Below, in pieces: positions 4,301-30,519 of a stretch of 64,000 bases of DNA. The stretch comes from Blasia pusilla (Eukaryota): the NCBI GenBank assembly GCA_050084515.1, contig CM114271.1, forward strand, positions 25,172,001 to 25,236,000, written 5' to 3'. Made by a program: the position numbers and the translations under genes. The notes under the pieces are model-generated. The model saw nothing but the letters and a program-made list of their open reading frames with translations, did not search any database and was not told the DNA's origin. Position 1 is the stretch's first letter. Every line of letters begins with the position of its first letter.

Positions 4301-4408
4301 TCCTGCATGAGCACGCAAGGCAATTTGTAATTCCTACACAGGGCTTCACTATACCTGATCCAACTAATTCCTGCACTACAGTAATTCATTACTAGCAACC
4401 CTCCTTAA

Positions 4409-7400
4409 TTATCCCTCGCTTGAGCTGCCACTGTTTGCAGGAGATCTGGAGGGCTCCTTCCTCCTTTTCCTATGTCGGCTGGAGCTCTTCTTGCGGATGG
4501 GACTGTCATCATCATCCTCTTTAGCACCCGCATCAGCCCTAGGGGAGTCTCCACCAGAATCTGAAACTGATTTGCCGCGAGTTCTATGCTTTCGCTTCTT
4601 CCTGTCTCTCCTTTCATCCTCATCCTCTTTCCTATGTTTCCTCCTATGGCGCCTTCTCTCTTTGCGCCCATCAGCATCATCTTTTTCCTCTTCATCCTCA
4701 TCCTTCTCATCATCCACCTCTCTCCGGTGCTTCTTCCGGTGTTTCTTGTGCCGCTCTTTCCGCCTCTCCCGCTCTTCTTCATCATCCACCCTGCAATCTT
4801 TAGATCTTGACTTCTCTTTCCCTTTGCGGCTAACACTTACGCCATCTTCTTCAAGTAAAACCTTCCGTTGTATTACCTTCACCTCCTCCGCATCTTCTAC
4901 ATCTGAGTCGTCCCTTGCCTTAGAATGTGCACCGGCCACCTTCTCTGCCTCCCTTTCTAGATCTTTGACTCCATGCACCATCAGAGGTCTTACTGTTGCT
5001 ACCACACGTTCGTCCTCCTCAGAATTGTGTTGGGGACCTTGATTAACATATTCATCCTCACTATAGAGTCTTTCAACTTCCTTTGCAGGAATGCTTGCCT
5101 TCTGTTTTCCTGGCTCTTTCTTGTCATCACTACCAAGATGCCTCTCTCTTTCACTTCCTCTCTCTTGCCTGCCTTCTTCCATTTCCTCTCCTAGACTTCT
5201 CCCCCTATCTCTGTGAGATTCCTGCCACCTCTCCCTTCTTACCGCATCAGTCCTCAACTTCATATCACGGCTTTGGTCCTCATGTAGGTGGTCAGTTTCA
5301 TGGTCACTATCTTCCAATACGTGCTTCTTACTCATTCTGTTGTTTTGCCGAACCTCTTGCCCTAGGTCTAGCTTACTTCGATCATGAGCAGTGGTATATC
5401 CCATCTTCACAGACTTACTCTCCTCTTCAACCTTCCTGTCAGAAACCCTTTTCTCATCTTTGAGTCGGCTTTTCTCCATGGACTGAACTTTCATATCATT
5501 ACGCCAGTCATCCAACTCCTTGTCATCATCGCTTTGTCCCAAAGCGCGAGAGTCCTTCCCACTGTCATCTCCTCCTCTCATTGACTTGCTCTGCTTTGCC
5601 TGAAAATGATCCCTAGGTTTGGCATCAACATCCTGTTCCTCACTAGAAATATCAGATCTAGTGCCTCTGATCTTGATATCCTTTGATGGCAAGCTTGGCT
5701 TGCTACCAGCATTCTCACCCTTATTCACACCAAATGCGTCTTCCCCCCTTGCACAGTCTCCAGGAAGTTTCTTTACAGTACTGTTAACATCCATTTCATC
5801 ATCAGACTGTAAATCCTTCATCAACGAATGGTTGAATGACACAGAGAGAGATCTCCGAGGGGAACGAGACAGTTCTCTAATCGGCAGATCACTTTCCTTG
5901 AAACTGCCCCTTTCTACCGTCACTTCTTTCTCCACAAAGCTCTCGCTCTTTTCCTTTGTATCAGGGCTTCTCATTTGAGTTCCTGTAAGTGGACTAACAG
6001 ATAATTCCTTGCCAACTTGTAGGCCACTTCGTGCAACCGGACTTGCATTCACACCACGCCTTGCTGGACTAGCACCATTCCCATGTAACTTTCTTCCAGG
6101 ACTCCTGCAAATCTCTTTTCTATGTGGGCTTGCACTTGGGCTTCTGCTGCTGATGGATGGGGTCCTTTTGTGATCCATTGATCTGGATCTCCTGGAATGG
6201 CGAATTGATCTCCTCTCCTCCCTCCTGTGCCTAGGAGGCGAGGGAGTCCTGTCTCTATGAAATCTGGGAGACCTAGAGCGTGTGCGAGATCTCCTCCTTA
6301 TTCTGCTCCTACTCCTGCTTCTGCTGCGCCGAGAACGAGGGTAGTAATCTCTGTCCCTATCACGGTCCCATTCTCTTCTGAAAGAATTCCATGGATAGTC
6401 ACCACGCCCTCGGTAGTAGCCTCTTCTATAGCTGTAATGATCTCTGGAACGTGAAGGAGAGTATGGTCGCTCCCGTCGATACCGGATCGGTGAACGGGAC
6501 AGGGACCGAGAGCGGTCTCGACGATACCGAATTGGAGAGCGAGACTTGGACCTTGATGGAGATCGTGATCGAGAAGCTGAACGAGACTTTGACCTGTTGC
6601 AAAGTTAATCATGGAATCAGAAAGCATGTGATATAAAAAAATTTGTTAGGAAAAACGCATTGTTGTTTTGCACTGCTGTCAACACAAAATCTATCCATCT
6701 AAGTGAATTGAGATTGCTCGGCAGGTATTGTTAATGAAAAATTCCATTGCAAGCAAGAAATGAAAACATACACATTTCCCCATGTTCTATCATTGAGTAC
6801 AGACCACCAATTTCAACCCTCCCACAGCCTACTTACGAGAAAGATAAACTTTGATAATGTTTCTCGGAGGCATGATATCTTTTTTCCAGAGGCGGTTAAC
6901 CAGTGCCTCTGAAAAGCTTTAACCCACAACACAGGATCACATGGAACCCTCATCCATGACACATCACTCATGACAACTAAAAATGGAACTTATCATAGTA
7001 TTTAACATTTGAGTCTGGCTTTGATGATTACTCACGATTTGCAGGTCTCAAATAGGATACTCATCACTCCAGACAGCAAGGTACACCTAATTCAGTTCTC
7101 AAAGAAATATTACAAGAATGCGCTTCAAAGTTCAAAACCTTCAGAGTTCATCAATATTTCACCTGCCAGGGCTTGGAGGCTTCTTTTCCTCATCTTCAGC
7201 GTCACTCCCTTTTAACTGCTTACTGATTTCTGCGGCACGTGCTGCTGCCATTTCTGCAGCTGACTTCACAGTGGCAGCCCGAGCTGCAGCCTGCTGTGTG
7301 GCCATTACCTGCTGCATCAACAATGCTTGCTGGAACTGGAATTGTTGCATTGCAACAGCCTGCTGCATCATCATGAGAGGTGGTGGCTGCATTTGTGCAG

Positions 7401-7488
7401 GATTTGCCACAGTAGGTGTAGTTGTTGACTGCTTCAATAACCTTGCAGCTTCGGTGAGATCCATGTTTCCTCGCCCACTTAAATCCAT
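4409..7488 (-). CDS. Q-rich / RS-rich (SR-related) nuclear protein, 2 coding exons: 7488-7163 and 6593-4409 (836 aa)
   Basis: Exon 1 encodes MQQAVAMQQFQFQQALLMQQVMATQQAAARAATVKSAAEMAAARAAEISKQLK, a motif I recall from the plant filamin/RRM RS-protein family (At3g23900-like). Donor GGCAG|GTGAAA at 7163/7162 and acceptor TTGCAACAG|G at 6594/6593 join in frame (326+2185=2511 nt) into an RS-dipeptide tract and the 589-aa ORF ending in TAA at 4409-4411. Confidence 0.8.
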
Positions 7489-8548
7489 CCCAACCCAGCT
7501 ATCTTGCTGCAATTGAGTGTCCCACTAGGTAAGTACTTTGGAGCCGAAACTGCACTTTCAATATCCTGCTGGATTTCTTCACTTCTCAGATTTTAGAGAA
7601 GGACATCTCTGTAGAAAAAAGACATCACCAAAATATTTTTAGACTTCAGAACTGATAAGGAAAAATTACAGGAGACTAGATGATCTTGCAGACCAACCAT
7701 CCGCCCAAATGGAGACAGCATAAGCTCGTTACAGTACCGGTAGGAAGAATGCAAATAAGAAATTTTAATGCATCAGTGCAGTGGGGTGGAAACATTGGGA
7801 TTGTCAGATTTCCAGTATCCAAACACCCCAAGGCTCCACACTTTGGGAATAAAGTTGCATAGTCCCATGAGATCAAATGCTCCTACACCAACTTGAATGG
7901 TCAAAAACAAGCGTTTTCATCTAATGATATGAGAAGTTTGAAGCCCTGATAACGACTATTATTCAGACAACTTAAACATAAACACCAAATGGATAGAGGT
8001 CACGACCAATTCTCTACGGAGGATAACAGAACAAAAATCAAGAGGCAGCCCAATTATGAGGTTTCCCAAAAAGTTCCAAGTGTTGCAGCACAGAAGTGAC
8101 TTTGACTAAAGATTAACCAGGGCAGCAACCTGACGTTCCAGTCAGCCGCCACATCATTGGCAGGTCATTCAAAACAATAAATCAGAAGACAAAATAAAAT
8201 GGAAGACCCGGAGCAATCTTTGTTGTCCATCCTCAGTACACGTAGACATCGCTCGTGATGAATTGTTCCTAAAATGTGATTCATTTTACAGAATGAAGTT
8301 AGATTAAGTACGCCAACCGTGACAAGCTAGAGCAACGCAGACACACAATCCAATATAGTGGACAGGGTGCGTCTTCAAATTCCTCAAAAGTGCGCCGAGC
8401 ATCTATCTTCTAAAATCCCACTCGCGACGACGAGTGAAGGAAAAGCTAGGTCCGTATGTCGACATCTATCTCCCGTACAAGGATGATGAAACCAGCACAA
8501 CACTGAGAGGACGAGCTAGCCCAAACCTTGCTGAGGAAAGCTCGAGAC

Positions 8549-8552
<4 letters not shown>

Positions 8553-8592
<40 letters not shown>
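8553..8592. repeat. (GA)n microsatellite, probably in the 5' UTR/promoter of the SR-rich gene
   Basis: Perfect AG repeat seen directly. Confidence 0.95.
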
Positions 8593-8595
<3 letters not shown>

Positions 8596-10399
8596 TCAAA
8601 ACCTCGAGACTCGGATCTTCCTTTCCAGGGACGCGGAAGACGGCACAAGACGGACATACCTTGCACGCTGGAATTCGCAAACAGGACGAGAATTGTAGCG
8701 AGAAAGGTCCCGGCCCTCGGACGATCCCACACACTGATCTCCGCAGCGCCAAGAATGAGCGCATGAGGAAGCATCCCAAAGAAAACAGTGAAGAGCGAAG
8801 GACGAGACAAAGAGAGCGAGAAAGAAGAGAAGGGGTTGATCCGAGGACAACAGGCCCACTCGAGGGTTTGTTGACGTGCGTGGTTCCGCGCGAGCTCACG
8901 CGCAGGGTTTGGAGGGGGAACGGGGCGATCGGACGGTTACGGGACGTTCTTCGACCGCGCGGGGCGCAGATGCCGGTACGCGTGTCCTCTGTGCGGCCCC
9001 GGAGCACGCAACTAGTGTGGTGAGAAACTCACCCGCGGTCACATTCACTCCGGTTACGTGGGAGAGTATTTGGAAGAAAATCAGTTTTGTTATTTGCATC
9101 ATTTTTCTTTGGTGTAAATTATTATTATGAAATGTATAATTTCTTATTTTACTAAGACTACCACGCCCGGAATTTATTTATGTATGCTAGTATTTTGCAT
9201 ATACTAGCATGGGTGAAAATCATTGTGGTAAAAATAAATTAGTTCTCATATTGAATATTACACATGACAACGTAATGTGTAATATTCAACATGACATCGA
9301 AAAATAAATATGGGAAAAAGGTTTCTTCAAATCTTTTTTTTTAATTATATAAATCTACAAAATAAATAATAAATATTTTCTTTAATAGGTTATTAGTAAG
9401 ATGCACGAAAAATAAAAAAATGTTTGAAGAGCTATTATATAGTCCGTGAAGGGAAAATATTGATGATGTTGTACATAAATTTATTTATTTTTCTTGTTGC
9501 GCGTAGCATGTGAAATATTTTCTTGTTGCCCAATTGTCATGTGTCAAACAAAAAGGTGTTTGCAAATCAAGAAGGCACTTTCCCATAATAATATAGATAA
9601 GGCACATGAGTGAGAAGAACACCATTTTTCAAAGTGAGACAATGTTAAGGCAAATTGGAAGGGAGAAATATATATGTTGGGAAGAAGAAATCTTTAACCT
9701 CTTCTAATTCAATGGCGCGTCTTCCTCTTTGAGCCATGACTCCTTTGATATTCATAACAACAGTTGCATTTGCTTAGTATATTGACTAGATGTGGCTCAT
9801 TTCCCTAAATAGAGGATAACCTATGAGGGTTGGGACATGGCCGAAACATACCTTGAAAGAGACATGAACCCCTCGATCATACCCAAGAGATGGTCCATAG
9901 CAAGATCTCACATACATCCCCCTTTGAACTAGCAATCATGGTGGTCAACTCTCTTCTCGTATATTATATAGTCTACGCTAACTTTACTAACCACTAACTT
10001 CTCCACTTAGATAGTCTCAAACCTAAATTCCCTCACAAGTCCTTGCAATAGAGAAGGAGGTGTGTTTTAAAAGCATGGTATGTATGGAGTCTCTAAGGTA
10101 AACAAAGAATTAAGGGTGCAACAAAAAAAGTTCATTTTAAAGAGAAAAGGTACAAAATAATTTTTGAGGATATTTCTACGGAGTCAAAATCAAGAAAAAG
10201 ATTACGGGAGAAAATATGAAATACCATATACTCATGTATTGAGCAAGGAGCACTACAAGGGATGGAAGATACCTTGAAGCATGTGGAAGGAGAGGAAAAT
10301 TACATGGTAATTACTATAATGATTCATAAACCCTAATATGACTTAAACTCAAAGAATATTTAAAAAATAAAGAAAATTTCATTGTAGAAGTGTAAGCAT

Positions 10400-11400
10400 A
10401 GAATAAAATGAAGAGCATCTTGGGTTGGTCATTTTGACAGCTCACACTTCTAATGAGGTACTACACTAATTGCATACTAAGTCCTCCCCACTACTAGGGA
10501 TTTGAGGGTCCACCAATTTTTTCAAGTCCTATGTTGGCTTGGACTGCTACTTTGTGAATGTACAACAATGATATTTTGCCAAGTACGTCGTAAGATATTT
10601 GTAAGTGAATAGGTTTTTGCAAGAATGCCAAATTTTGCAAGTGCTTAGGGTTGTAACCTCAGCTTGTAATTCAATCCTAGCTTTCCCACATTTTTCTTGG
10701 CATCATGGTGCATTCTTATCGAGAGGCATAACATGCTTTCCAAGTAACTTCAAAATTCGATCTATGAGACTATGGCTATGTTGGGTGCACTATGGGCTCA
10801 AAAAATGTAAATGTATGCATAAAAATGCCAACTCTAAACTTTTGCACCAAAATAAATTGTTTTACATGCATTCTCCATTTCATTGTCTTTTATACTTGGG
10901 CTATCTCTTAGATCGTGAGGATGATCTATGTCATTCTCATTGGCTTCATTTATCTCCCTATCAAAATCCTCTATATTTTCTTCATGAAGATTATCATATT
11001 GGGAAGGACCACTGGTCAACACTTTTTTAACATCAACATCTATATATATTGTTTTGGTGTAGATATGCTTGTTTGGCTCTATTTGTTGACTTCTTCCCAA
11101 GTTTTCCACTCACTTGTCACGCAAAATTAATGATATTGGTTGGATACACCCTAGTATTATGCTCATCTTGATCAAACTATTCATTGCCACAAGAGTCCCA
11201 CTCTTCATTACCTTTCTAGATCCTCCAGAGGGCAAAATAAATTGAGTTCTCTCAATTGGTCCTCCACCTTCGGTAGAGAGAAACTTCTTTGTCCCTTGCA
11301 AAGATTGCAATAACTCCTAACAAGCTTCAATCCATCCCTTCTAGCTCCGCCAACACAATTTTGAATCATGTCTTCTTCATCTTATAAAGATGGTAAAGAG
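10400..11400 (-). mobile_element. Highly degraded CACTA/En-Spm-like transposase remnant
   Basis: Broken minus-strand peptide fragments (VRSYCNLCKG; ENACKTIYFGAKV) loosely resemble CACTA transposase N-terminal Cys motifs. Many stops, AT-rich. Confidence 0.3.
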
Positions 11401-12233
11401 ATTCTCTATGCCAATATATCACTAGAAGGAATATGATCCTTTTAGCACTAAGTCATTTACAACTAGAATCCTAGAATACTAAAATATAACTACATATAAT
11501 TATAGAATCCTAATTATCATAATCTAATATCTTCTAATTGCTAAAAGTAACTAAATGGTATAACATGAGAATTTTTTTTAAGATTATTGAATTTGAAAGA
11601 AAAATCATTATGAACATATCATTGAGAAGAAATGACTATATTAGTAAGAAATAACTAAGATGTGGCAGATAATACAATCTAATTTTTACACGCTATATCA
11701 TAATTAAAATTTAATTCATCAAAATGCCACATTTTAGTAATTTCTTGCTAATATATTATTTTTCAATGATATGTTAATAATTCCTTTTTTTGTAAAACCA
11801 TCTGTGTGACTAGATGTAGTTACTATTTTTACACTATTGCCATGTTAGCAAATAATACCCTAACTTGAAATACTCTATCCAATCTGCAATAGTAAGCTAC
11901 ATGGCAATTTAGTAAATTTACTTATGAATAGCTCCAAAAGCCTTGAGCCCAAATTTGAACCCGGATCTATGTCAATGTAGCAAGCACATTACCAATATAC
12001 TAAGAACTCTTTCTAGTCATAGTGATGGATGGAAATTGGTGGGAGAATGTATGTAGTGAGCAACGGAAGAGCCACCAAGAGAGATAATTTGTAGTATTTG
12101 ACATTTTAATGCATGTTCCACCCTACTCAAATATGGCCACTTCATTTTGGTGGAATTTTCTTTCAAGTTGGGAGACACTTATAGGGTTTATTCTTGGTAT
12201 AAGTTCGAACATCATGTGATTTGAGGTATGATT

Positions 12234-12237
<4 letters not shown>

Positions 12238-12289
<52 letters not shown>
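12238..12289. repeat. (CT)n microsatellite
   Basis: Seen directly. Confidence 0.95.
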
Positions 12290-12291
<2 letters not shown>

Positions 12292-12650
12292 CACCATCCA
12301 ACCAAGCTAGAAAATAAAATGAAAATAGCTCAATCTACCTTTGATATTTTGTTTCCGCCTTCAAATCCCTAAGCTTAGATACAAACTCTGTTTTACCTAG
12401 AATGATGGTAGGGTAAGACGCTATAGGTGATTAAAAATCCAGATATCTATGTGTGGGCTCAGTTTGCACACTCATAAAATCTATAGAAAATCATAAGTAT
12501 GTTTTGTAGGATCTGAATGTAATAAGAAATTCTCACTATTAAAGTGTAGGTGTTGGGATCATTTTTATGTGTATCCATGCATATTAGACTCATCATTAGA
12601 GGAACATCAACTTGGACAATGAATCATCTTTAAGTATAGACATCTCTACA

Positions 12651-13018
12651 CTATCATGACCATACGGATTATGTCGTAGAGTCTAGTGTGCTAGTAGAGG
12701 CCATTCCTTATGTAGGACCGTAGTGGCTTGGTAGAGATACGGTTCCATACATAGGGTTGGGGGTTACTCACTTGGGGTGACTTTCCCAGTAGGGCCCGCT
12801 CTTAGGTTGGAGGATATAAGGTGGAGTGCACTCAAAGAACAGTCAGTTCTTTGAGTTGAGCCTGTTGCGTTGGGAGTTAGCCTTGGTAGTGAGTAGAGCT
12901 CTTGGCTATGGTGTTTCCCGCAAGCTTCGACCTAGATTCTCCCATCATGGAGTGGGTTTGGCTCGATTGTATGTGATTGTAAACGTGTTTTATGACAGTA
13001 GGTCTTTCACGGATTTCA
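12651..13018 (+). repeat. 5' LTR (segment B only; lacks the first ~108 bp)
   Basis: About 96% identical by eye to 20945-21311; ends ...GGATTTCA; contains TATA-like GGATATAAG at ~12812-12820. Confidence 0.9.
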
Positions 13019-13030
13019 CTCAAAGAACTG
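13018..13030 (+). promoter_or_regulatory. Putative self-priming primer-binding site
   Basis: ACTCAAAGAACTG at the 3' edge of the 5' LTR is the exact reverse complement of CAGTTCTTTGAGT at 12844-12856, about 25-30 nt downstream of the TATA-like box. It is not a TGG-starting tRNA-type PBS. Confidence 0.65.
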
Positions 13031-14569
13031 GAGTAGATCGATGGTAGCTTCGATTGTAGATCAAGTAGGGATCGGTTAGGGCTGATTGTGTACTCAGCCG
13101 TGGATGTTCGCGGCTTGTTGCCTATGTTGGAGGTGTGAATCAGGTGCGTGGTCGGTTGGGAAAGAAGCGCCTTGCCAAGCGCTTTCCAACGCGCTATAGA
13201 TCGCCGGATTTCGTCAAGGGAGTTGGAAGTTATCAAGCATTGAAGATTCTGGTTTGTGTTCGACAGTTTTCTGATGTGGAGAGCTTGGAGTGCGGAAGCT
13301 CTGTTGAAGTTCATCCAGATCGGGTGAGAGGTTCCTGTTGCTACTCGTATTGTGATCTCATTTGAATCTATCTGCTTGAGTGTGTGGAGCGTTGCGGATT
13401 TCTGCGTGCATGAAACTTGGCAGAAGCGCTGTCGGATTTGCGGTTCTAGAGGTGTATGGACAGCAAGTTTGTCTGATTTTTAGCTCGGAGTACGGAGCTC
13501 GGTTGTAGCTGAGTTTTTGTGGGGAGATAGCTATGATGGTCAATTGAATTCTGATAGAAACAGATTTGATTTTGGTCACGTATTTGTGAAGTAATTTCTG
13601 ATCGAAATTTCGCGGACTAGCTATGGTGGACAGCGGATCGGAGGGGTTGGTTGGTTGGTGACTCGTTCATTGTTGGAGACGCCTATCCCGTTGGGGGCGC
13701 CCAGGTTGGACCTCTCTCCATAGCGAAGCGTGGCGAAGCGTGGCGAATGGGGCATGTCTCGGCGTTTCGAGGCTTCGAGGCAACTCGTGGTAGCTCGGGG
13801 CGAGTGGGCGTGAGAGGCAGAGCAAGGAGCAAGGAGCAAGGAGCAAGCAAGCAAGCTTGCTTGGGCGTGAGGCAATTTTTGCAGGATTTGGGATTTGAGT
13901 TTTGCATAACTGGTCACCCATCTTTGGGCTATTCTACCTGGAGGACGCTTAACTGCTGAGTTCTTAACTATGCCGGTGTACAGACCGTTGTAGTTCATTT
14001 GGTGTTGTTGGGAGATGTGTTAGGCGCTTTATGCATCTCAGGTTTTTGGTTGATGAACCTCTAGCGCATAGTACGGTGTAGCCTCTCCATGCAGGTGATA
14101 TTTTCAGGTGCTGCGAGTTCGACTAGCACGTCATCGACCCGCGGCGGAGTAGCTATTGCGTTAGAATTGTGTGGTGGGTTTTGTGGATTCAGAGGGCACC
14201 ACATTTGGTGGATTGTGTTACCTTGATTTCCATTTGCGATTGGAGGGTTGTCGTTGGATTTCCTATGTTTGGATCCCCTCCATCGTGCTTCTTGCTTGCG
14301 CGCCCATTGTTAGGGTTGATGCTGATTTCGAGTAGTGTTACTCTTGTGTGCTACCGGTAGTGAGAGGTGGAGGGATGATGAGTAGACTATGGGAGACTTC
14401 TTGTGGTGATGACAAGTTAGGTTGCCTACACCCATAGCTAGTAGAGCTAGAATAGTATAGCGACATCGGCGTCACTTGGTAATTTGGTGGTGGTGCGGCA
14501 TCGGCGTTGGTCATCGAGTGTCGGGTGGTCGGTTGGGGACCGTGGTGCGGACGGTGGTGGTTTCACGGA

Positions 14570-16334
14570 GTGGATTTAGGTATCGGCTACCTTTTCCACT
14601 TCCGGCGGTTGATGAAGAGGAGGGCGAGGTGTTCCAAACACCGAGTCTTCTACGTTGTTATCGAGTGTTGCGGCTCCATTGATTTGGGACATGGGCCCGG
14701 TGGATATGGGGCCATGAAGGGCCCACGATGATACTCGGGTGCGATTGGGTACCATTGAGTTGGAGGACTTCATGCGGGAGTTTGATACGTGGTATGATAT
14801 GCGAGATGTTGGAACGCCATGCGTTGTTTACACCCTTCTTGGCTTGGAAGGGGTTGTTTCAAAGACTTGGAAGGACCACCCATGGATGATTACCATGAGT
14901 TTAGGAAAGACCATGTTCTTTGAGATTGAGGCGTGGAGACAATATTGGTCTCCAGGCTATGTGTCTATCACCCATGGTGGTATTGGTAATCTTGCTCCTA
15001 CTATGCCCGGCCCGGACCCGGCGTTGAGTGGTGCAGTGCGAGCCGGAGTGGGGGTACCAGTGGAGGTACTAGTGGAGGTACTAGTGCCCCACCATGGTTT
15101 AGCCCGGTTGCAGAGTTCTTCAAGAGGTTAAAGAAGAACTCTCAAGGAGTGAAGACGGAGAAGTTGAGGAATCTTCAGGACTTTGAGCGAAAGCTGGTGA
15201 GAGTCTTCGTGAGGCATACACGCGTATCGGCACGCTTGATTTCAATTACCGGGTGTGGCGAGGATCGAGGCAGTCCAGTTTTGGTATGGGATCTTGGGCA
15301 GAGATTTGCGCCGTAGGGTGCGTGATGCTACTCTTATGAGTGATGATTCACCCACATTGATCCATGTGTTTGCTCTATCGAGAAGATTGAGCTTAACATG
15401 GTGAAGGAGAGAGTGGTGACATCCGCATTGATGAGGGATACAACTACTACTTCTCGTGCTCAGCCGCCCACCTCACAGTCTCGTAGTAGTGGTGGTGGTA
15501 GTAGTAGTGGGAGTCGTGGGGGTACACGCGACCTCAGTCAAGTCCTAGAGGACATTTGTGCAGAGACCATTGCCTTCATTTGCTGCCCCTTGCGGCAAGG
15601 GCGATCATGTTGGACATGTGGAGGTGATCATGTTAGGAAGTTTTGTCCCCAAGAGGATGGGAGCGGACTTTGGAGGATGGGCCTCGATCGGCCCCAACTC
15701 GGTGTGATCATTGCGGGAGACTAGGTCATCCTCGAGAGCGTTGCTTTGATCTTCATCGAGTTGAGATCGGGCCGTGGCCGTGGTGGAGTAGCTCGAGAGG
15801 CCGAGGTGGTAGAGGTGGTAGGGGTGGTAGAGGTGGACCGGTGGTTGGAGAGCCTACGGTGGCTACCCCTACCACTACGACAGAGTCACTATGGCTGCCG
15901 AGATTGAGCAGATTGGAGCGAGAGTTGGCTACTATGGTGGTATCCAAAGATAGATCAGGTTTGGGAACAAGGGCTTCCACCTCTTATGGAGGGGATGATC
16001 TCTCTTATATGGCGAGTGCGGCCTGGTTGAGGCATCACCTGCGATTATGAGAGGAGCCACTCGGCGTCGAGCCACGTGGTGCTCTTTGTGGAGTTGGACC
16101 CACAGAGGGATGAGGCCGGGAGGCGGGCTAGGCTTCCCAGTCATTCTTGTTGTCCGAGGTGCTTAGGACTCCATCCATGGTTCCTACGCAGACCTATTCA
16201 AATTGTGGGGGATCGAGGCATCTACATCGGCGTGTAGTAGACACGGATGCAAAGCATCCAATGCAGATGTGCGGATGGCAACTTCAATGTTGGGATCCCC
16301 ATTATTTTCGACCCACGGAGCTGATGGCTTTAGG
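14570..16334 (+). pseudogene. gag: Gypsy gag (frameshifted) with two CCHC zinc knuckles
   Basis: Fragments IELEDFMREFDTWYD, KLRNLQDFERK..ESLREAYTR, knuckles CWTCGGDHVRKFC (~15608-15646) and CDHCGRLGHPRERC (~15703-15744), RGG tract. The start is approximate. Confidence 0.75.
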
Positions 16335-17757
16335 AGGTCTATGTACCACCTGGAAGTCATACTCCTGTAAGATAAGAGCCCACCGTGCAAGCTTCCCTGT
16401 AAGCTTGTCCGACTCCATCAACCACTTGAGCGGTGGTGATCAGTAACAAGGGTAAAGCGTGTGCCAAACAAGTAACACCTAAAGTGTGCCTGAGCCCACA
16501 CTCTTGCCAAGCACTCTCCCTCATATGAACTATAGCGACTCCGCTGCATTATTGAACGACTTGCATAGGCCACCACAAACTCCATGTGCTCATCATCATG
16601 TTGTGTCAACACCGCTCCAAGTCCCAACCTACTCCAATCGTGTGTAACTCAAATGGGCGCCCTCGATAGGTCTCCTCAAGATAGGCGCCGCCACCAACTG
16701 GGCCTTAAGCTCACAAAAGCTCTCTCTGATCATCTCCCAAAGTGCCACTCTTGATCTGATTTCAGCAATTGGTTCAAAGGCTTTGCCATAGCACTAAATC
16801 CCTTCACATACCTCCGATAGTAGTTCGCCAATCCCATGAATGCTTGAACTCTACTCACATCTACCGGACCTTGAGAATAAGTGCAATAGCCTCCACCTTT
16901 GCTTGCTGAACTCCCAAACCACCTGGATAGATCACATGACCCAAGTACTCAACATCCTCATGAAAGAACTTACACTTTCCGGATGCAACGTAGACCATGA
17001 GCTTTCAACCGCTCAAACACCATCTGCAAATGTATCGATGCTCCTCCACCGTGTTCTTTGAACACCAAGATATCATCAATGTAACACCGAACAAAATCCA
17101 ACCCCTGCTAGGATCTGTCCATCACTCTTTGAAATTGGCAGGTGCATTCTTCAACCCAAAGGGTAAGAATTTCCACGGTACAAACAATCCTTGCCATGAG
17201 AGTTGACACCCCAAAATCTTTGTCTTGGCCTTGTCACTCTCCCGAATCGGCAATTGATGGTATCCTGCCCGAAGATCCAAAGTAATGAAAATCTTTGCCT
17301 GTCCCACCATATCAAAGATCTCCTCAGGTGTAGGCATGGCATACCTATCGGCCTTGGTTTGCCGATTGATAGGACGGTAATCTCTACACATCCGCCTATC
17401 CGTGTAGTTGCCATGCATATCCTTTTTAGCAGGCATGACAGTGGCAAATGCATACTCTCCATGCCACAACTCCACTAATCCAGCCTCCAAAAGGTCCAAC
17501 GTCCTACTCTGAATGAGGTCCTTCTCCATATCACTATATCGGTAAGGACGACGGAAGATTGGCGTATCACTAGCCAAATCAATCCGTATACCGGGTCCAA
17601 CCAGAGAACCCAACTCCTTCATGTTAAAGGCAAAACAACTCCTATAAGCACGTAGGAACTGTGTCAAGCGTCGTTTCTCACCTCCCATAAGCTTGGGCCC
17701 AAGTAATGGCTCCCAAGTCTCCTCCACTGGCACACTAGAGGGAGAGGACGATGCCAT
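16335..17757 (-). pseudogene. pol: Gypsy reverse transcriptase + RNase H (inside the inverted block)
   Basis: PIFRRPYRYS, RMCRDYRPIN, LDLRAGYHQL, PFGLKNAPA, CYIDDILVF (~17063-17087); RNase H LGAVLTQ..VVAYASRS..YSSYEGECLA..FTLVTDH..KLARWALILQEYDFQVVHRP ending at ~16335. Frameshifted. Confidence 0.92.
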
Positions 17758-17989
17758 TGGTCGCTCATAACCCCCTCACAAGATGGTACACCCTTAGCTA
17801 CACCATCATCTCGAGCAAATAACTCCTCCACCAAAGATGAGCAACCAACTCCAAATGCCCACCATTACATCCCATTTACTCCAAGGATGCAAAATACTTC
17901 TCTCCTCGCCCCCAGCCGATGCCTCTACCGTCCCGGTAGCCATCGAGCTCATTACAAGGGGTGGAAGACCCACAGACATAGTCCGAAGT

Positions 17990-19006
17990 CGACGCTGCTC
18001 GGCCATACCAACACTCAAAATTCAAGTCAAACAATTCAGGTCCATGGCGTGACCCAACACATGACGTCGTGAAGCCTCGAAATAGAAGCAACCATTTGTC
18101 ACACCGAGAGCAAATCCCATCGCACGCTCTCTCTCATCGGCGTTAGGCTCCACCAAGCCGCACATGAGAATCCCATACAAGCCCCGGACCACCTTCTCTG
18201 TAGGCATGTGACGAGGGAAAACTCACAAATGTGGGTAGTGCCATCCTAGGCTGGCCCACACGGTTCACCACTGCCATGGGTGACCGATCAATAACCCTCA
18301 CCACTTGAGAAAGTCGCCCAATATCCAAGATACTATCCATTTGAGGCGAGGATCATTGCAGACTTTGCATCATATGCTCGACGTAGAACCTCCTAGGCAA
18401 CAAGTTTGTCCACCACAGCGTGGGCGATGTGCACGCGAGCCAACTCGCGCTGCATCCAACAACACCGTTGGTCCAATCCAAGACCGCACCTCATGAACAC
18501 TCGCCATCATCCGGGTCCGAGTGTCACCCAACAATGGAACATTCTCTAGAATGTAAGCTAGAGCACATGCCTGATGAACCTGAAGATGTCGTAACACACG
18601 TAACATCTCCCAAAACAATCGAGACCTAGGGTCATGTAATCCCTCACCACAACCAGCACGTGTATGACCCTGACATGGTCATCCAGCAATCACCAAATCC
18701 ACAGGACCAACCCTCTCAAGGTTCTGCGCCCCCAACAATGCAATGTGTGATGGTAAAGCAGGTTGGTACCCACGAATAGCTGATGGCGACAACAACTCAG
18801 GATATCTCCGCATCAACTGACCAATATGTCGGGATGAGACTCTCTGGGCCGTCTCATCTCGCTCCACATACACGTATCTCCAAGACAGGAATACCGGCCT
18901 GCAACACTGCAGCCAAACCAGTGCTTATCCCACCAAAGAGATCTAACACACAAATGCCCTCCGGCGGATACTGCCATACAATGGGTGTAGTATCCAAAGG
19001 GGACCT
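17990..19006 (-). pseudogene. DNMT3-like C5-cytosine DNA methyltransferase domain encoded within the retrotransposon polyprotein
   Basis: Ordered motifs: I VLDLFGGISTGL; II YVERD; IV GPVDLVIAG(*=W)PCQGH; VI YILENV; VIII AHRPR[fs]LWWTNL; IX EPNADERERAMGF; X RRHVLGHAMDLNCL. These parallel DNMT3A (VLSLFDGIATGL / GPFDLVIGGSPC / FENV / AHRARYFWGNL / EMERVFGFP / RQRLLGRSW). Several frameshifts and stops. Confidence 0.88.
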
Positions 19007-20500
19007 AGAGTTGCCAACCTTGATGCTGATGGGTTGAGTAGGAACCCATGTACTAGCCAAGAGGATACAACTGGGGCTAGATGGCATGGCGAGGTTGATG
19101 AGGAGATGGTCCCATGTTGGCATGCATCCGCCTTTTTATGTTGGTTAGGGGTGGACTCTAGTATGGAGGACCACATGATATCTTACTCTAGTCGAGGGTA
19201 GATGGCCGACCTTGAGATCCTAAGGTTGGAGATGGTGGCGGATCAGCGTGATATTCATGATGATGCGTTGGTGTTGGAGTTCCTACGGACCAGTAGGGTG
19301 CCGGGCATAGTGAGTGCCAAGGAGCGAGACCGTGTTCTTCAACGTGCTAAGAGGTATCGATTGGAGGGAACACATATTCTCCGCATGTGGGAGGATGGTA
19401 GAGTACAGTAGTGCCACATTTGGCTCGAGAGAGCGCATTGTGCGACATGCCCATGAGGAGTTGGGACATTTTGGGGTAAAGCGTCGTATAGCTTACTCCT
19501 TGGCGATATTGGTGGCGTGGCATGCATACTCAGGTGTTGATTGGTGTCACGTTGTATGGTTTGTGACCGGGTGAGGGCATCATTTAATGCCCCTACACCA
19601 CAATTACACCCTTGCCTATTATGGGGTTGGGTTACCGTTGGAGTGTGGACTTTGCGGGACCGTTACCGTTGGATGCGACATCATCGATATGTGTTGGTGA
19701 TGGTGGAGCACTTCTCCGTGGATTGAGTTGGTGGCATTACCGGACAAGGCAAGTGAGGGAATGGCGTATGCGTTTCTGGATAGAGTGCTTAGTCATTTTG
19801 GTGCACCAACTGAAGTGCTAACCGACCAGTCTGAGTTTGTGGTGAGTTTCAGGTCTTGTGTGACAAGGCGTTGATTGATCATCGGACCACGTCTCGAGAT
19901 CATCCAGGCGGATGGTTTGGCTGGCGTGTGGTTGGGGCGGTGAAGAGGGCATTGCGCAAGTATGGCCTCTGAAGGGGCATCTTGGAGATAGGATATTCGG
20001 TTGCCATGGTTAGCCATGGGGTATAGGTTCGATCGCCAAGCATCCTTGGCTTCCTTCTCACCTTATTTTTACATTATACGGCCGAGATCCGGACTTGCGC
20101 AGCAATTGTCGGGAGTCTAGTGAGGTGGTGAACCTTGATGACCCGAGAGATGTGGATGAGGGTGTGTTCTCGGGCGGAGCTCTTTCGGAGAGTTATGCCA
20201 TGACCTTTGAGAATCTTGCCATTGCTCAACACAGGGATACGTTGCGCTATGCAACCATTGGGTGGAGGTTATCGACCATCGATTCGTAGGTTCCATGTGG
20301 GAGACTATGTCTATTTGTAGCAGATTGCCCGACAACGTTGGATGTGACGGCAGCCACACTATTTTACGAGTGCGGAAGGTGTTAGCCTCGGAGTTCTCAT
20401 GTTGGAGGGTCGTGATGGAGTTGTTTGGAAGGACCATGTGCGTAATTGTGCGCCATGTCATCTTCCAAATGTGGATGGTATCTTGTTGACCCAAGCTTAG
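19007..20500 (+). pseudogene. End of RNase H (VANLDADGLSRNP) + Gypsy DDE integrase
   Basis: HHCC (HAHEELGH...CMVC), RWSVDFAGPLP, YVLVMVEHFS, FGAPTEVLTDQ, DHP.ADGLA, LPWLAMGYRF, SPYF..YGRDP. Frameshifted. Confidence 0.9.
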
Positions 20501-20523
20501 CCATGATACGTGCTAGCTTGTGG

Positions 20524-20655
20524 TGCATGTTGTGTGGGTCTGCGGGTAAACCGTATGTTGGTGTGTGATCGGTGTTCTAGGGGTTGGCACATGATGTGTT
20601 TGACTCCACGTTTGGATGTTGTTAAATCTTTGGAAGGTGGGTTTGTCCTCGATGT
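20524..20655 (+). pseudogene. PHD finger at the integrase C-terminus
   Basis: CMLC....[fs]MLVCDRCSRGWHMMCLTPRL....WVCPRC, a C4-H-C3 PHD pattern with the typical W-x-C-x-x-C end. Confidence 0.8.
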
Positions 20656-20836
20656 ACTTGGAGAGGTAGATGACTTGATCTTTGCATGATATGGATTACA
20701 GATGTGCGACTAATGATGGGGCAACCTAGCACCCGGCCTTACGATTCGGGCACCCAAGAAGGTGTATAGCATGTAGTAGATGTATAGGGCTACCTGGGAG
20801 TTAGAGGACCTAAACCGCCTTGATTAGGGGGCGAGT

Positions 20837-21311
20837 TGTGGTACACTTGTGTTTGTGGATATACTCGTCTATGTTATGTATGTATGTGAATATGGTATGT
20901 CGATGTATGTTGTATGACGATGTGGATTTCACGACTACGACAAGCTATCATGACCATACGGATTATGTCGTAGAGTATGGTGTGCTAGTAGAGGCCATTC
21001 CTTATGTAGGACCGTAGTGGCTTGGTAGAGATGCGGTTCCATACATAGGGTTGGGGTTACTCACTTGGGGTGACTTTCCCAATAGGGCCCGCTCTTAGGT
21101 TGGAGGATATAAGGTGGCTTGCCCTCAAAGAACGATCGATTCTTTGAGTTGAGCCTGTTGCGTTGGGAGTTAGCCTTGGTAGTGAGTAGAGCTCTTGGCT
21201 ATGGTGTTTCCCGCAAGCTTCGACCTAGATTCTCCCATCGTGGAGTGGGTTTGGCTCGATTGTATGTGATTGTAAACATGTTTTATGACAGTAGGTCTTT
21301 CACGGATTTCA
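20837..21311 (+). repeat. Complete 3' LTR (TG...CA, 475 bp; segment A 20837-20944 + segment B 20945-21311)
   Basis: Starts TGTGGTACAC right after the PPT and ends GGATTTCA, as does the 5' copy. Confidence 0.88.
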
Positions 21312-21313
21312 GT

Positions 21314-21427
21314 TGTGGTACACTTGCGTTTGTGGATACTCTCGTCTATGTTATGTACGTATGTGAGTATGGTATGTCAGCGATGTATGTTGTATGACGA
21401 TGTGGATTCGCACGACAACACGCCAAG
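21314..21427 (+). repeat. Extra copy of LTR segment A abutting the 3' LTR
   Basis: TGTGGTACACTTGCGTTTGTGG...GATGTGGATT...ACGCCAAG repeats 20837-20944; the junction reads CA-GT-TG. Confidence 0.88.
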
Positions 21428-23537: not shown

Positions 23538-23556
23538 GAGGTTTTCTTCCCTAAAG

Positions 23557-24077
23557 ATATGCCATTCTATGAGGTTTCGTCGAAGGGAGAATATCTCCGC
23601 TTCCGACCATAAGAGACGAGCACCTAACCCGATGTAAAACCAGTCTGCGACCCTTTCCTTTGAGACGGGTAACGAGGGAGAAGAAATAATTAATACATAC
23701 GTGTAGAGGACACGTGGATACTCTTGATGGCCATAGTAAAAAACAATAAGAACTTGTAGGGGCTGTAACGATAAACAAGGATATGGACGTCTTGTCTTTA
23801 GAAAGGTATGCCATTTTATGAGGTTATGTCGAAGGGACAATATCTCTACATCCAACCGTAAGAGACGAGCACCTAACCCGATATAAAACCAACTCGGAAC
23901 CCCCCTTTCCTTTGAGGCAAATAGGTACACGAGGAAGAAATAATTAATACATACGTGTAGAAGGAACTTGGATATTCTAGATGGCCAAAAAAATCAGCGG
24001 GAATAAACAAGGATATGTACGGTGAATGAGAACCCGTAGGGACCCTAACGATAAACAATGATAAGTACGTCTTGTCT
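23557..24077. repeat. Two diverged tandem units of ~250-270 bp
   Basis: Units 23557-23798 and 23807-24077 share ATGCCATT.TATGAGGTT..GTCGAAGGGA.AATATCTC, TAAGAGACGAGCACCTAACCCGAT and GAAGAAATAATTAATACATACGTGTAGA. Confidence 0.85.
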
Positions 24078-27000
24078 ACGGAAACGACTTTGACAGCGAG
24101 TGAAGACGTCCGAAAGGCTGAATGAGGCCTTTGGTCGTCTGCGTATTTGTGCAAAACGCAGCAGGAAAGCTGGGAAGTTCGCCCGATCTTTCGAACGCAC
24201 GGGCGGCGGCGGCAGTGGCGATGCGAGCGCGCATTGATGTGAAGTAGCCAAATCTGAGCTCTCTGAAGGTCGCGTTGAACTGGGGAATCATTTTCGCCGC
24301 GTCCGCGCTCAAATTTCCGCTTTCGTTTCGACGCTTCTCGGATTCGTAGACATGAGGGATGACGGATTTGGGATATGGTGGGAGTGAGGATGGAAGCGAG
24401 CGCGGGCACGGCGGGAGAGATCTCCGACTGCGGCGGATTTGTGGAGGGCCGTGACGAGAAATCTGGAACCGAGAAAAACGCTGAAAAAGCGCTGCGCTTT
24501 CTCCGTTGCCCGCCCGTGCGGCCGTTTAGGGTTTGTGCGAGCATTTCGGAGTGATGGAATGCTGTGTTTCGCGCGCCGTGGTCGCGTTTTGGCAATGATG
24601 ATTATGAATTGATAGCCGATTGCTACCCGGGCTTCGTGAAGCGCTGGTGGCAGCAAAAAGACGCGTCTGATATACATCTGAGCTATTTCTTAGGGTTGCG
24701 CTACCAGTCCTCAATTTCTGATTCGTCGGAAAGGTTTTTCTCTCGGACGTGCTAGGATTCTTCCATGGCCTCGTCCATCGCTTGGTCAAGTTCCTTCCGT
24801 GTTAAGGAGTTTTGGTTTCATTTTTGTTACGCTTGCCATCGACTCTCTTCCAAAGTGTGTTATTGTGTGTGACGTACGTGCGTATTTAAGGATTGGCGAG
24901 GATCGGAACGAGGAAGGACAGCAGAAGGTGCCGCTGCGAAGAGAAGTAGCAGGCGTCTTCTTTGACTGACTATCATAACACTTGATATGAGCCAAGTTTC
25001 TTCACTGGAATTTGTCTTGAATTAACTTGATGCATAGTCGCTTCTATCGTTGCTCTTGATCGGATGCATATTTGCCTGTCTCCTTTCCGCGCTGAGGGCC
25101 TGTATAACTATCAAGCAATCGCTTTGCGTTTCTTGGATGCGGGGCCGTTCTAACTGCAGAAAAGTCTCTGGAGCGTGGATAGTCTAGTCTCCAACATATT
25201 GCGTGATACATCTAAATATATTTTCCCAGGAAAAATGCAAATAGACTGAAGCGAACATGGGATGGTTTTGGCGTTCAACAGGGCCATAATTCGTAAGGAA
25301 AGAATTGAAAAGATCAGCACGAAACATACTTTTTCATGATGACGAACTGAGAGTACGTCACCCACTGAAAGACAGCAGGCAGAATGCGCTTCGGCGGAAG
25401 TGCTGATATTGAGTTCCAAATAAATGCGAACTAGGAATTTTTGTCAACTTCTGTCAACTCGTTTGTTAGAGGATCAGTGGTACATTCACCTTATCGGTGC
25501 TTCGCCAGCTTACGAGTGGTAAAGCTTGATATTCTTCCGTGTCAATAGTTTTTTCGTATTTACTGGATAGCGAGTATATTCTCACTATCCTTGTAACTTT
25601 GATCGGCATGACAAGATCGATCGGAATTTTCGTAGTTCCTTGGACATGTAAGACCCGCACGTCAATGCAATCGGTTTCTTCAGCGAACGATTGATACTCG
25701 CGTTCATTTTATGATAGTACGGTGACATTTCGCTCATGCTCGCAGTTTTATCATCAGTCACTCCTTCATCGCTGGAAGAAATGAATCTTCTAACAACTCA
25801 GGTATGGTGCACAGCATAGATCTGTTGAAAATTAAAAGTCGCGGCATCTTTCCTTAATGGACCAGTGGCCTACCATAACACTTGTTAAACTTCTCGTACT
25901 TTGCCGAGAGTTTTAGAAGTGCGGAAAAAGTTTCTTCGTTAGACCATTTCTCCAGATTTAAGAGAAGACACCCACAAGAGTGTGTAAAGGAAGATGAATA
26001 ATGGATTCAAGGAGGGTCCTTAACTGAGTTTGTAACTTGAGACAGGAGAATAAATTGCCGATGACAGCGACAAAAGTACAAAGGTGTGAAAACCATCTTG
26101 GACATTGGATGAGTCGATAAACATGAACGATGATTTTAACATTAGTCACTATTAAACCCCATGGTGCCAAGCCACTGCAATTCATGTATGAACATGGCAG
26201 ATAAGCACTTGGGCATTGTGTACAAGAATGAGACTCTGTCCCAAGATCACCAAGGCAAGGCAAGGGGTGAATTCTCCTCACAACGAGTGGTAGAAAAAGA
26301 CCAAGATCCGTTCTTATCCAAAACTTGGCTGGTCAACAACTTCAGAGTGGGAAGAGAAGTTCATCTAGAGGTAAAGGTCTTGAAGTTTCTGCGATGGGAA
26401 CCGAAGTCACAGTTTTAGTGGCAGAACTACACCGATTACTTCTCAAGGTGGAGTTGAGTGGGTAGTTTAGACCGGTAGGAACCAGGTTCTAATATTCATA
26501 ACCTGCCAGCAAAAAATCATCGAACTCGTGGATTTACACTGATCTGTATGAATTGGACCGCTGATATTCTCAAGAACCCAAGTTTTAAAGCTCGAAGGGG
26601 TTTGATGTAGTGTACACAGCGGAGTAAATACAGGGTACAATGTCGCGACCCCAAAATAACCAACAATATCACTCTTTTGCACCAGTCTAAATGTTGGATT
26701 GGGAAGAGAGTTCTACTACTCTACAAGTATTCCCAGATGTCCTCACTATTAAAATTTGGCAGTTGTAGCAGAAGGCTCTCGTAGTGGAAATTTTCAAATG
26801 TTTCTGAGATCTGCTAGGAGCTATATTATTCCGAAAAAAATGAACACTTTTTTCTGAATGAATATACAGTGTTGGCACTGCTACTACGGGAATGCTCCCA
26901 CAAGTTTTGCTATCCTGGATGTGACAAGACACTACCTCCAAGACAGTGGTGCAGGAGATATAAGAAACCTTCTGATGGGACTCTGGGAGAATCACAGTCG

Positions 27001-28983: not shown

Positions 28984-30519
28984 GAGTGGAAAATATTTGA
29001 TCCAGCAGATAAGATGAGTAGTAGTTTAAATAAAGGCTGAGCCTAGACTGGGAGAAGTCCTGTGTGACATTAAACACCCAACGTTAGAACTCATTTTAGC
29101 GTCGAATGTCAGAGCAAGATCACCTTCTTCCGGACGACAGTGGAAAAATCGACTAAACATCCCAGTTTCCAATCGGCGAGCAAAGCACTACGGTTTCTGA
29201 CCGACTACTCGTCTCTAAATTGATGCGGAGGTGAATCCCCAGTACTGCTCGTCGCTACAAATTCGTCGACATCTGAAGATTCCAGGATCGAAGACAAGAA
29301 TGGCCGCATTCTAAAGGCATCCAGAATCAAGCGCGAATGTCTTCAGACTTCGTTAAATGGGAAGGCACCACACCCCAGCCGACATGGGTTCAACGCCTCC
29401 GAAGTGTACCATGACGATGATCGTGAGCACGGACTGAGAATGGAGCACTCCACACTACCAGATGTGGTTGCATGACACTGCGCTACATGTTTCGTAAGGA
29501 TTTTAGTATCTCGTCCGGGACACGTCATTACAGCTCCAAGTAGAACAAAACTGCACTTCTACCTAGACATCGTTTGATAGACGATGGATCATATACTATG
29601 CCCCGATGGAAATGTCCCAACGATGGTCCGATAGTGAATCAGACCACCAAAATCGTGACCTCGGCATGTACATGACACCGATTCCCTGCCTGAGCTACAT
29701 TCTTTATTTGACCAGACGACAGCGAGCCTGTAGGTCTGCGCATTGGAGTTCCACATCCGTTCACATCTTGAAATTTGGTTTGAGTTCGTTGTGCCTGGCG
29801 AGTTCTACGGTAACCCGTTGAGAACTGAATATAGCCAATACATACCGGCACCCAAAGGTTCACAGAGTCACAGAAAGGCGCCTGTGATTTCGTCTCTAGA
29901 CTGGAAGCCGACTGTACAAGTACTTGAGTTCCACTTCCGTCTGGTTGGCCCTATCGCCATCCTGGTAGTGCCACCATGGCCACGCGTCTACACAACCTCA
30001 GCAAATTCCATTGTGGAAGCAGCCCTCACTCCTCTCACAGTTCGGCACCTAGAGCAATCCGTACTTCAACTCGTACCGCCGCGGCCAAGCTCCGACATGA
30101 CTTCCAGCTACCCAAATATCCCAAGATCGAACACTCACGAGGAAAGGGCAGTCGCAGACGAATTCGTCAAAATCGTGATCAGCTCTTAATCTTAACCATG
30201 TTCTGGCCGGTCTTCGATGGAAAGAGAATTGATTGTAACGCTTGGAAAAGGATCAACAATTCACTTTCTCCTGGAACTGCTGAAGCTTCACTTTAGAGGA
30301 TTGACTTTTCATGGCACGAATCACTTCCTAGGCGTATGGGCGGACAGAGAGGACTGCTGTTACAGCCTTCAACTTCTTCTATGGAAAGATGTTCCACCAC
30401 CTCCACAACACGGAATCTCGAGAGTCAATTATCCTCATTAACACTGTGGCGTATGCGGAGGTGGCTCTGAGTCAAGAGCCTCCTCGGCGACTTCCAGCCA
30501 TCCGTCGACACGATTATGT

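Follow-up and report, generated by a model that had tools for sequence, protein, structure and literature searches.

A degenerate Ty3/Gypsy-type element with a DNMT3-like methyltransferase domain and a PHD finger in Blasia pusilla, a probable land-plant member of the KnitGypsy-Dnmt3 lineage

What advantage does a transposon draw from encoding an enzyme of the kind that its hosts employ to silence transposons? This question is raised by a 64-kb stretch of the Blasia pusilla genome (GenBank assembly GCA_050084515.1, contig CM114271.1, positions 25,172,001 to 25,236,000 of the forward strand), hereafter called the window, the first letter of which is position 1. Six-frame reading and Pfam searches delimit at positions 12651-21427 a single retroelement of Ty3/Gypsy type, 8.8 kb long, that bears a PHD finger and a C5 cytosine methyltransferase (DNA methyltransferase, DNMT) domain. 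An original prediction, made from the sequence of this locus, had considered that it would be a mobile epigenetic module combining a writer and a reader. According to the present analysis, it is very probably a dead and rearranged copy of a streptophyte Ty3/Gypsy element of the KnitGypsy-Dnmt3 lineage, equipped with a DNMT3-type methyltransferase and a PHD finger. Being inverted in part, devoid of protease and interrupted by stops, this copy cannot itself be such a mobile module and is only a fossil. Its lineage is present in liverworts, mosses and Closterium, including the genetic model Marchantia polymorpha, for which methylomes, mutants and transformation are available, and a very diverse sister clan reaches the chlorophytes. 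The question can thus now be tested in organisms with experimental tools.

Layout of the element and type of its methyltransferase domain

The element opens on the plus strand with a terminal repeat, A1 (12651-13018, 368 bp), followed by a leader (13019-14698) starting with the conserved CTCAAAGAACT, at the position expected for a putative primer-binding site. The gag region, comprising two CCHC knuckles and the stretch towards the protease, extends over 14699-16335 (+) and is truncated there at a breakpoint of the inversion discussed below; residues 3-511 of the Marchantia relative P0017 align by tblastn with 14699-16248. C-x2-C-x4-H-x4-C patterns are visible in the reading frames of the window gag; Pfam zf-CCHC found none in its fragments at E 0.1 and was reached in the relatives. 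The next three domains lie on the minus strand: RNase H (RH) at 16336-16800, at the end of the inverted block (RT_RNaseH E 1.3e-18 at 16421-16648), reverse transcriptase (RT) at 16876-17775 (RVT_1 E 7.2e-9, 36.1 bits for a cutoff of 29.6; residues 696-937 of P0008 at 17715-16876), and a degenerate domain of predicted DNMT3 type at 17854-19003, positioned by tblastn of P0017 and by Pfam. The plus strand is resumed at 19010 with VANLDADGLSRNP, where the inverted block had stopped, and encodes an integrase (INT) with an H2C2 zinc finger and a DDE core up to about 20300. This region was mapped by tblastn (P0008 residues 1106-1190 at 19004-19384; P0038 and P0071 at 19570-19969 and beyond), its fragments being below the Pfam cutoffs (Integrase_H2C2 E 0.0076, rve E 0.0059). 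A degenerate PHD finger forms the integrase C-terminus (20447-20686; Pfam match at 20507-20686 (+), E 2.2e-6, 28 bits for a cutoff of 24).

Downstream of the coding region, a purine run resembling a polypurine tract, a function that it may have had, is located at 20822-20834 (+), directly 5' of a short repeat, B1 (20835-20944). B1 abuts the second terminal repeat, A2 (20945-21311), and the element ends with B2 (21312-21427), all on the plus strand. A1 and A2 are identical at 354 of 367 aligned bases (96.5%, 1 gap column), and the 110 nt of B1 align with the 116 nt of B2. The resulting order A1-coding-B1-A2-B2, with no B at the 5' end, rules out a plain pair of long terminal repeats (LTRs), and the two framing LTRs expected of Metaviridae are absent. 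The pol order of this family (protease, RT, RNase H, integrase) is found in the relatives, and the RT, RH and INT of the window agree with it once the inverted block is flipped. As a side observation, the 13 mismatches between A1 and A2 include 9 exchanges of the type A<->G and, read on the plus strand, not a single C<->T, a strand-asymmetric transition bias.

The original prediction had reconstructed the element by flipping 16335-19006, and tblastn places the breakpoints within about 10 nt of these positions. The order that it derived, gag-DNMT-RT-RH-INT, is right for the domains named and omitted the protease which relatives have between gag and DNMT. Its RT and its PHD finger ending the integrase are supported by Pfam matches above the cutoffs, the latter also by the same arrangement in P0069 and P0071; its integrase is recovered by tblastn mapping, the rve match remaining under the Pfam cutoff.

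From about 19003 down to 17854 on the minus strand, the methyltransferase motifs succeed each other in the order I (FGG), II, IV (PCQ), ENV, AHRPR, ERERAMGF and G-x-AMD, in agreement with the series previously listed at about 19006-17990, and the Pfam DNA_methylase profile matches 18370-18678 (-) with an E-value of 2.6e-6 (27.6 bits for a cutoff of 22). A TGA stop precedes the PCQ of the window where the relatives have a Trp. Such a set of motifs and domains exceeds by far what chance would produce. For the intact relative P0002, the best solved relative is DNMT3A (E 6e-12), colinear with it over residues 47-231 and 320-353, which span motifs I-VIII and IX-X; DRM structures match only residues 44-170 of P0002, through their C-terminal, permuted half. 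A structure model of the domain was built from 60 sequences (mean pLDDT 92.9), a 16-sequence model (mean pLDDT 52) being left aside. With this model the best 50 Foldseek matches are all DNMT3A, DNMT3B or DNMT3C. In a structural search against representatives, the predicted fold was closest to DNMT3B (Z 29.0 over 279 residues) and DNMT3A (Z 27.8 over 269 residues), followed by the bacterial M.MpeI (Z 25.8), a margin of only about 3 Z, and by M.HhaI (22.7), DNMT1 (18.8), ZMET2 (18.7), MET1 (17.4) and DRM2 (9.7 over 134 residues). Sequence and modelled fold thus identify the domain as DNMT3-like and non-permuted. A DRM enzyme is ruled out, the motif order being linear and DRM chains aligning through one half only, in sequence as in fold; the earlier preference for DNMT3 over the permuted DRM is therefore upheld. 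Neither a PWWP nor an ADD domain was detected in Pfam scans of 22 related proteins.

Relatives, clans and the KnitGypsy-Dnmt3 lineage

The DNMT frame of the window, its stop read as X, matches 40 proteins, the best with 73-79% identity. Named sources are available for 21 of them: 16 from Marchantia polymorpha, 3 from Calypogeia fissa and 2 from Sphagnum. P0014, P0017 and P0026 display gag with two CCHC knuckles, protease, linker and DNMT, and in P0008 and P0012 Pfam recognizes DNMT, then RVT_1, then RNase H within one protein. The intact polyprotein deduced from such sequences reads gag (CCHC x2)-protease-linker-DNMT3-type methyltransferase-RT-RNase H-integrase, with a PHD finger at its C-terminus. 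A scan of metagenome contigs provided 446 candidates, among which 104 related stretches were confirmed and 80 loci kept. All 31 loci of at least 9 kb are colinear on one strand, in the order gag, protease/linker, DNMT, RT/RH and INT/PHD, and the inversion of the window occurs in none. The original prediction had proposed a family trait and a land-plant representative of a DNMT- and PHD-bearing Gypsy lineage; the named bryophyte proteins (Marchantia, Calypogeia, Sphagnum) and the colinearity of the long loci agree with both proposals.

Besides the window, the complete A..B-A-B layout is present in three loci, L057, L078 and L052, likewise with no B at the 5' end, A1 being truncated in L052. In the four complete copies the 11-mer CTCAAAGAACT follows A1, shifted by 3 nt in L078, and a purine run of the form ...AGGGGG(G)... 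abuts B1. L057 (6000-15203) and L078 (1328-12353) have TG...CA ends and 4-bp duplications, CATA and AATC respectively, and these ends and target duplications point to an integrase-type insertion. The A2|B2 joint of these two copies resembles an LTR-LTR circle junction. Two loci hold more than one copy: L052 contains two family copies in opposite orientation, at 5-4591 (-) and 7503-14338 (+), and in L017 a partial copy (1-7786) is directly followed by another, in tandem or nested. No tyrosine recombinase family appeared in any Pfam scan, which revealed rve and Integrase_H2C2. An element of DIRS or Ngaro type is ruled out by this integrase and by the TG..CA ends with 4-bp duplications, only the repeats being DIRS-like.

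The wider distribution of the domain was evaluated with a DNMT profile searched against 1.84 billion representatives of 50%-identity clusters; E<=1e-3 was reached by 6012 of them and E<=1e-30 by 407. The best 150 appear to be transposon-borne forms or their fragments. Six of 30 representatives looked up had organism names, corresponding to Klebsormidium nitens (GAQ93235.1, here P0167), Closterium (four) and a Scenedesmus 'pol'. An unrooted tree of the DNMT domain (126 rows, IQ-TREE quick search) is split into two clans with an SH-aLRT of 96. The first clan, of 33 rows, comprises the window together with Closterium, K. nitens and the whole set of bryophyte rows; wherever its architecture is informative, it is protease-DNMT(-RT). 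The second, sister clan (93 rows, including Scenedesmus) has RT-RH-DNMT-INT(-PHD). All named streptophytes fall in the first clan and the sole named chlorophyte, Scenedesmus, in the second. The single exception to this correspondence between design and clan, P0172, is probably an artefact of the regular expression. An RT motif is seen in 46 of the best 150 representatives, with the DNMT after it in 42 and before it in 4, and eight more read directly from protease to DNMT. Pfam gives the order RT-RH-DNMT-INT-PHD for P0092, P0098 and P0105, with the same DNMT position by profile in P0102, P0109 and P0124. It gives CCHC-DNMT-RT-RH-INT for P0099 and P0258; the Closterium protein P0260 has CCHC, protease, DNMT and RT. 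Of 66 rows of the RT-RH-DNMT-INT clan, 37 have Glu instead of the Pro of the catalytic Pro-Cys and 32 have Thr instead of the Val of ENV, the Cys being invariant.

This kind of element is already published. KnitGypsy-Dnmt3 of K. nitens has, in the account of de Mendoza 2018 (PMC5890265), a non-permuted Dnmt3-type domain in the Pol open reading frame of a Gypsy-type element and repeats of an unusual layout described as 'A-coding region-B-A-B', as in the window and the three further complete copies. The K. nitens protein P0167, which we infer to be one of the published copies, belongs to the DNMT clan of the window and can be aligned colinearly with P0017 of Marchantia from the protease up to the end of the DNMT (569 aa, 29% identity, E 1e-54 by BLASTP). 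The repeat layout, together with the clan and colinearity of P0167, makes the window element a land-plant member of the KnitGypsy-Dnmt3 lineage. It differs from the published element by its host, which is of land-plant type, its nearest relatives being bryophyte copies, and possibly by the C-terminal integrase PHD which the bryophyte copies add; P0167 stops before the integrase, and the term 'PHD' is absent from the text of PMC5890265. The Ka/Ks given in that text is below 0.2, compared with 0.35-0.58 here on decayed copies. The same text places the acquisition of DNMT3 by Gypsy 'in the K. nitens lineage', a 2025 paper refers in its text back to this 2018 report, and a preprint (bioRxiv 10.64898/2026.05.21.726589) mentions the 'streptophyte Gypsy-DNMT3' as a separate acquisition.

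Other systems share one part or another of this composition. As reported in the text of PMC5890265, SymbioDIRS-Dnmt3 of Symbiodinium likewise has a Dnmt3-type domain in Pol and A-coding-B-A-B repeats, with a tyrosine recombinase and a DIRS-type RT where the window family has a DDE integrase and the Gypsy order; its DNMT conferred de novo CG methylation in yeast. Chromoviruses also bear a chromatin reader at the integrase C-terminus, presumably tethering integration to a histone state; in the window family a PHD finger takes the place of the chromodomain and a DNMT is added. Gypsy-7a_cRei and other PHD transposons of Chlamydomonas (10.1101/2022.06.16.496473, PMC8557442) have a PHD accessory domain in a green-lineage Gypsy polyprotein, located before the integrase (RT, RH, PHD, INT) instead of after it, and no DNMT is described in the text of these reports. 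EpiLTRs of Cymbomonas and Euglena, as presented in the preprint cited above, are LTR elements in which a DNA methyltransferase is likewise joined by a chromatin reader; the DNMT, a sister to DNMT4, is placed 3'-terminally in pol and is accompanied by a chromodomain and an adenine methyltransferase.

The novelty attributed to the locus by the original prediction is consequently not retained, since both the kind of element and its repeat layout were reported from Klebsormidium in 2018 and green-algal Gypsy elements with PHD fingers are also in print, as far as the text of these sources goes. Our literature search found no report on the family in bryophytes, of which the supplementary trees of PMC5890265 and PMC12344493 may hold sequences, and, as regards Gypsy elements uniting an integrase PHD with a DNMT, only the reports on Chlamydomonas PHD-Gypsy elements. 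New with respect to the literature are apparently the occurrence of the family in land plants, including Marchantia, and in Closterium, with a reach to chlorophytes, the recurrence of the PHD, the two clan-specific positions of the DNMT and the integrase-type insertion of a DIRS-like repeat layout.

The PHD finger recurs throughout the family. It was found, always as the last feature, in 46 of the 68 proteins reaching the integrase among the best 150 representatives, and P0069 (Sphagnum fallax) and P0071 carry it behind the integrase. The PHD region was recovered in 24 related loci besides the window, and the Cys4-His-Cys3 pattern is intact in 13 of these 25 copies, several of the 12 others being cut by the end of the locus; it is also intact in P0069, P0071, P0171 and P0253. 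A 60-aa PHD query retrieved no longer proteins, which is weak evidence, the PHD of the relatives having been reached through the upstream integrase segment. Pfam scans of the window and its relatives gave no chromodomain, a PHD being present instead. The 60 nearest solved PHD fingers listed include those of KMT2C/D, CHD4, WSTF, KDM5A/B, DPF2, PHF12, ATXR5, PHF21A, UHRF1 and AIRE, and none among these 60 is an aromatic-cage reader of H3K4me3. The PHD fingers named here, from KMT2C/D to AIRE, read the unmodified H3 tail.

Catalytic residues, selection and possible roles

The catalytic residues are largely retained across the family. All 89 rows of known design possess both the catalytic Cys and the Glu of ENV, and 123 of 126 rows the Arg pair of motif VIII. 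Pairwise ratios of nonsynonymous to synonymous substitutions (dN/dS, NG86) were calculated among the decayed metagenome copies and between the window and these copies, the latter comparison being made at a dS of about 0.5-1.3. Among copies, the lowest values were those of RH (0.34), RT (0.38), INT (0.42) and gag (0.46), followed by DNMT (0.58), the linker between protease and DNMT (0.77) and the PHD (0.89 over 58 codons). Between the window and the copies, they were 0.34 for RH, 0.34 for RT, 0.40 for INT, 0.45 for gag, 0.35 for DNMT, 0.42 for the PHD and 0.12 for the linker, for which only 40 of 205 codons were covered. Neutral decay after insertion pushes all these values towards 1. The original prediction had called for such a comparison across copies, and its outcome is divided: the ratio of the DNMT is higher than that of the RT among decayed copies and equals it between the window and the others. 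The deeper of the two comparisons, that of the window with the copies, indicates a conservation of the DNMT comparable to that of the RT during the diversification of the family.

It is reasonably probable that the DNMT of intact members is catalytically active. Synthesised within Gag-Pol, the enzyme would travel with the RT and could methylate cytosines of the new cDNA or of the neighbourhood of the insertion. That the cDNA of the element itself is the substrate is somewhat less likely than not. For the PHD finger, we consider it an evenly balanced possibility that it recognizes the H3 tail in its unmodified state and directs insertion away from promoters with H3K4 methylation, by analogy with the chromodomain of chromoviruses. 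The recurrent association of DNMT and PHD suggests that writer and reader were selected together, and in the sister clan the DNMT is directly upstream of the integrase and its PHD. The most inclusive scenario would be an ancient green-lineage Gypsy clade carrying a DNMT3-type writer and, in most members, a PHD reader of the unmodified H3 tail, with two fixed designs (protease-DNMT-RT in the named streptophytes and RT-RH-DNMT-INT-PHD in the Scenedesmus clan). This clade would have persisted into land plants and been active there in recent times. Its members would methylate their cDNA or the site of their insertion and select chromatin without H3K4 methylation as a form of self-silencing or stealth, and an ordinary integrase would insert their genome, permuted in the DIRS-like A..B-A-B layout. 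As a whole, this scenario is speculative and rather doubtful.

Several results weigh against the proposed identity and activity of the lineage. The predicted DNMT3 type is founded on likeness of sequence and of modelled fold. No open polyprotein frame was found in the copies examined, the longest open reading frames of 17 loci measuring 113-545 aa. Among the 18 copies extending 900 bp or more beyond the PHD, two B repeats separated by 380-560 bp were found in only 5; 10 of these 18 also extend 1.8 kb or more before gag, and an A1/A2 pair was found in 5 of the 10. P0258 and P0235, two full-length members of the clan of the window close to the Closterium group, have complete C-termini devoid of PHD, which is accordingly not universal in this clan. 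Among decayed copies, the dN/dS of the DNMT exceeds the 0.34-0.42 of RT, RH and INT, and that of the PHD is higher still. The CpG observed/expected ratio is 0.70 in the element and 0.71 in the rest of the window, with no signature of depletion. No target-site duplication was found flanking the window copy, where one was looked for, and its inversion is read from the assembly. Finally, in the only published assay of a Gypsy-DNMT3 domain, that of KnitGypsy-Dnmt3 gave no methylation in yeast, a result termed inconclusive by its authors in the text of PMC5890265, as human DNMT3B was likewise inactive under these conditions.

This yeast result also bears on the most serious alternative, in which the domain would have been kept for a role other than the deposition of 5-methylcytosine on DNA, for example RNA methylation or the binding of DNA or RNA. 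The excess of the DNMT ratio over that of the RT among copies and the Glu found in place of the motif IV Pro in 37 of 66 rows of the sister clan could be explained in this way. Such a role is nevertheless unlikely: the catalytic Cys, the Glu of ENV and, with three exceptions, the Arg pair of motif VIII are retained, the modelled fold matches DNA-bound DNMT3A and DNMT3B over 269-279 residues, and human DNMT3B was also negative in the yeast assay, as given in the text of PMC5890265.

Rearrangement of the window copy and status of the family

In the window element, gag and INT-PHD are encoded by the plus strand, DNMT-RT-RH by the minus strand. Alignment of intact relatives by tblastn places the breakpoints at 16335/16336 and about 19004-19018: residues 861-1247 of Marchantia P0017 correspond to 19017-17854 (-) and residues 959-1109 of P0008 to 16790-16326 (-). 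The minus-strand block closes with ...YDFQVVHRP at 16335-16343 and the plus strand picks up VANLDADGLSR at 19010. Since one conserved motif is thereby cut at a single point (VVHRP / VANLDADGLSR), 16336-19005 is interpreted as an inversion. The segment of P0017 that includes the protease active site (residues 512-860) has no match by tblastn anywhere in the 64-kb window, and the alignments indicate that about 1 kb with the protease was lost at one of the inversion breakpoints.

The junctions are those of the assembly, and neighbouring copies in opposite orientation exist, as in L052; the minus-strand block could therefore be conceived as an assembly artefact or as the product of two truncated copies placed head to head. 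This is improbable, as the two blocks are exactly complementary with nothing duplicated at the split motif, they add up to one element minus its protease between a single A1 and a single B-A-B end, and tblastn of relatives over the 64 kb found no further family fragment in the window. An inversion within one element remains the preferred interpretation.

The copy is dead, every domain having stops and frameshifts. Its DNMT is recovered as four high-scoring segment pairs in alternating frames, corresponding to three frameshifts, to which three in-frame stops are added. The segments of gag contain at least 11 stops, gag and integrase having many more than the DNMT, and the PHD has a frameshift near 20540 and lacks its last Cys pair when compared with P0069 and P0071.

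The annotation of some Marchantia models as genes, for example P0014 as 'DNA (cytosine-5-)-methyltransferase', would fit an interpretation of the DNMT-bearing frames as domesticated host genes. This explanation is very improbable for a domain that is fused to gag, protease, RT and integrase, that is present in multiple copies flanked by terminal repeats, and most copies of which are decayed. A single capture of a host DNMT by one element, the domain not being a family trait, is refuted, with a negligible probability, by the 40 related proteins, the 407 clusters at E<=1e-30, the 104 confirmed metagenome stretches (80 kept) with their colinearity, and the constant place of the domain within the polyprotein of Klebsormidium, Closterium and bryophytes.

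The remainder of the window contains a few other features. An open frame of 731 aa at 4409-6604 (-), with many Arg-Ser, Arg-Asp and Lys-Glu repeats, resembles an exon from a gene for an SR-type or charged nuclear protein, and one of 280 aa at 28183-29025 (-) has as nearest Atlas cluster a bZIP group, mostly of Streptophyta, with a weak score (0.77). Two further stretches resemble, by eye, remnants of other retroelements, a LINE-like reverse transcriptase fragment with a FADD motif at 44473-45048 (-) and a Copia-like integrase C-terminal fragment at 51988-52527 (-). Shortly downstream of the element, positions 23553-24084 are occupied by two or three tandem copies of a unit of about 250-280 bp, with 80-89% identity between them.

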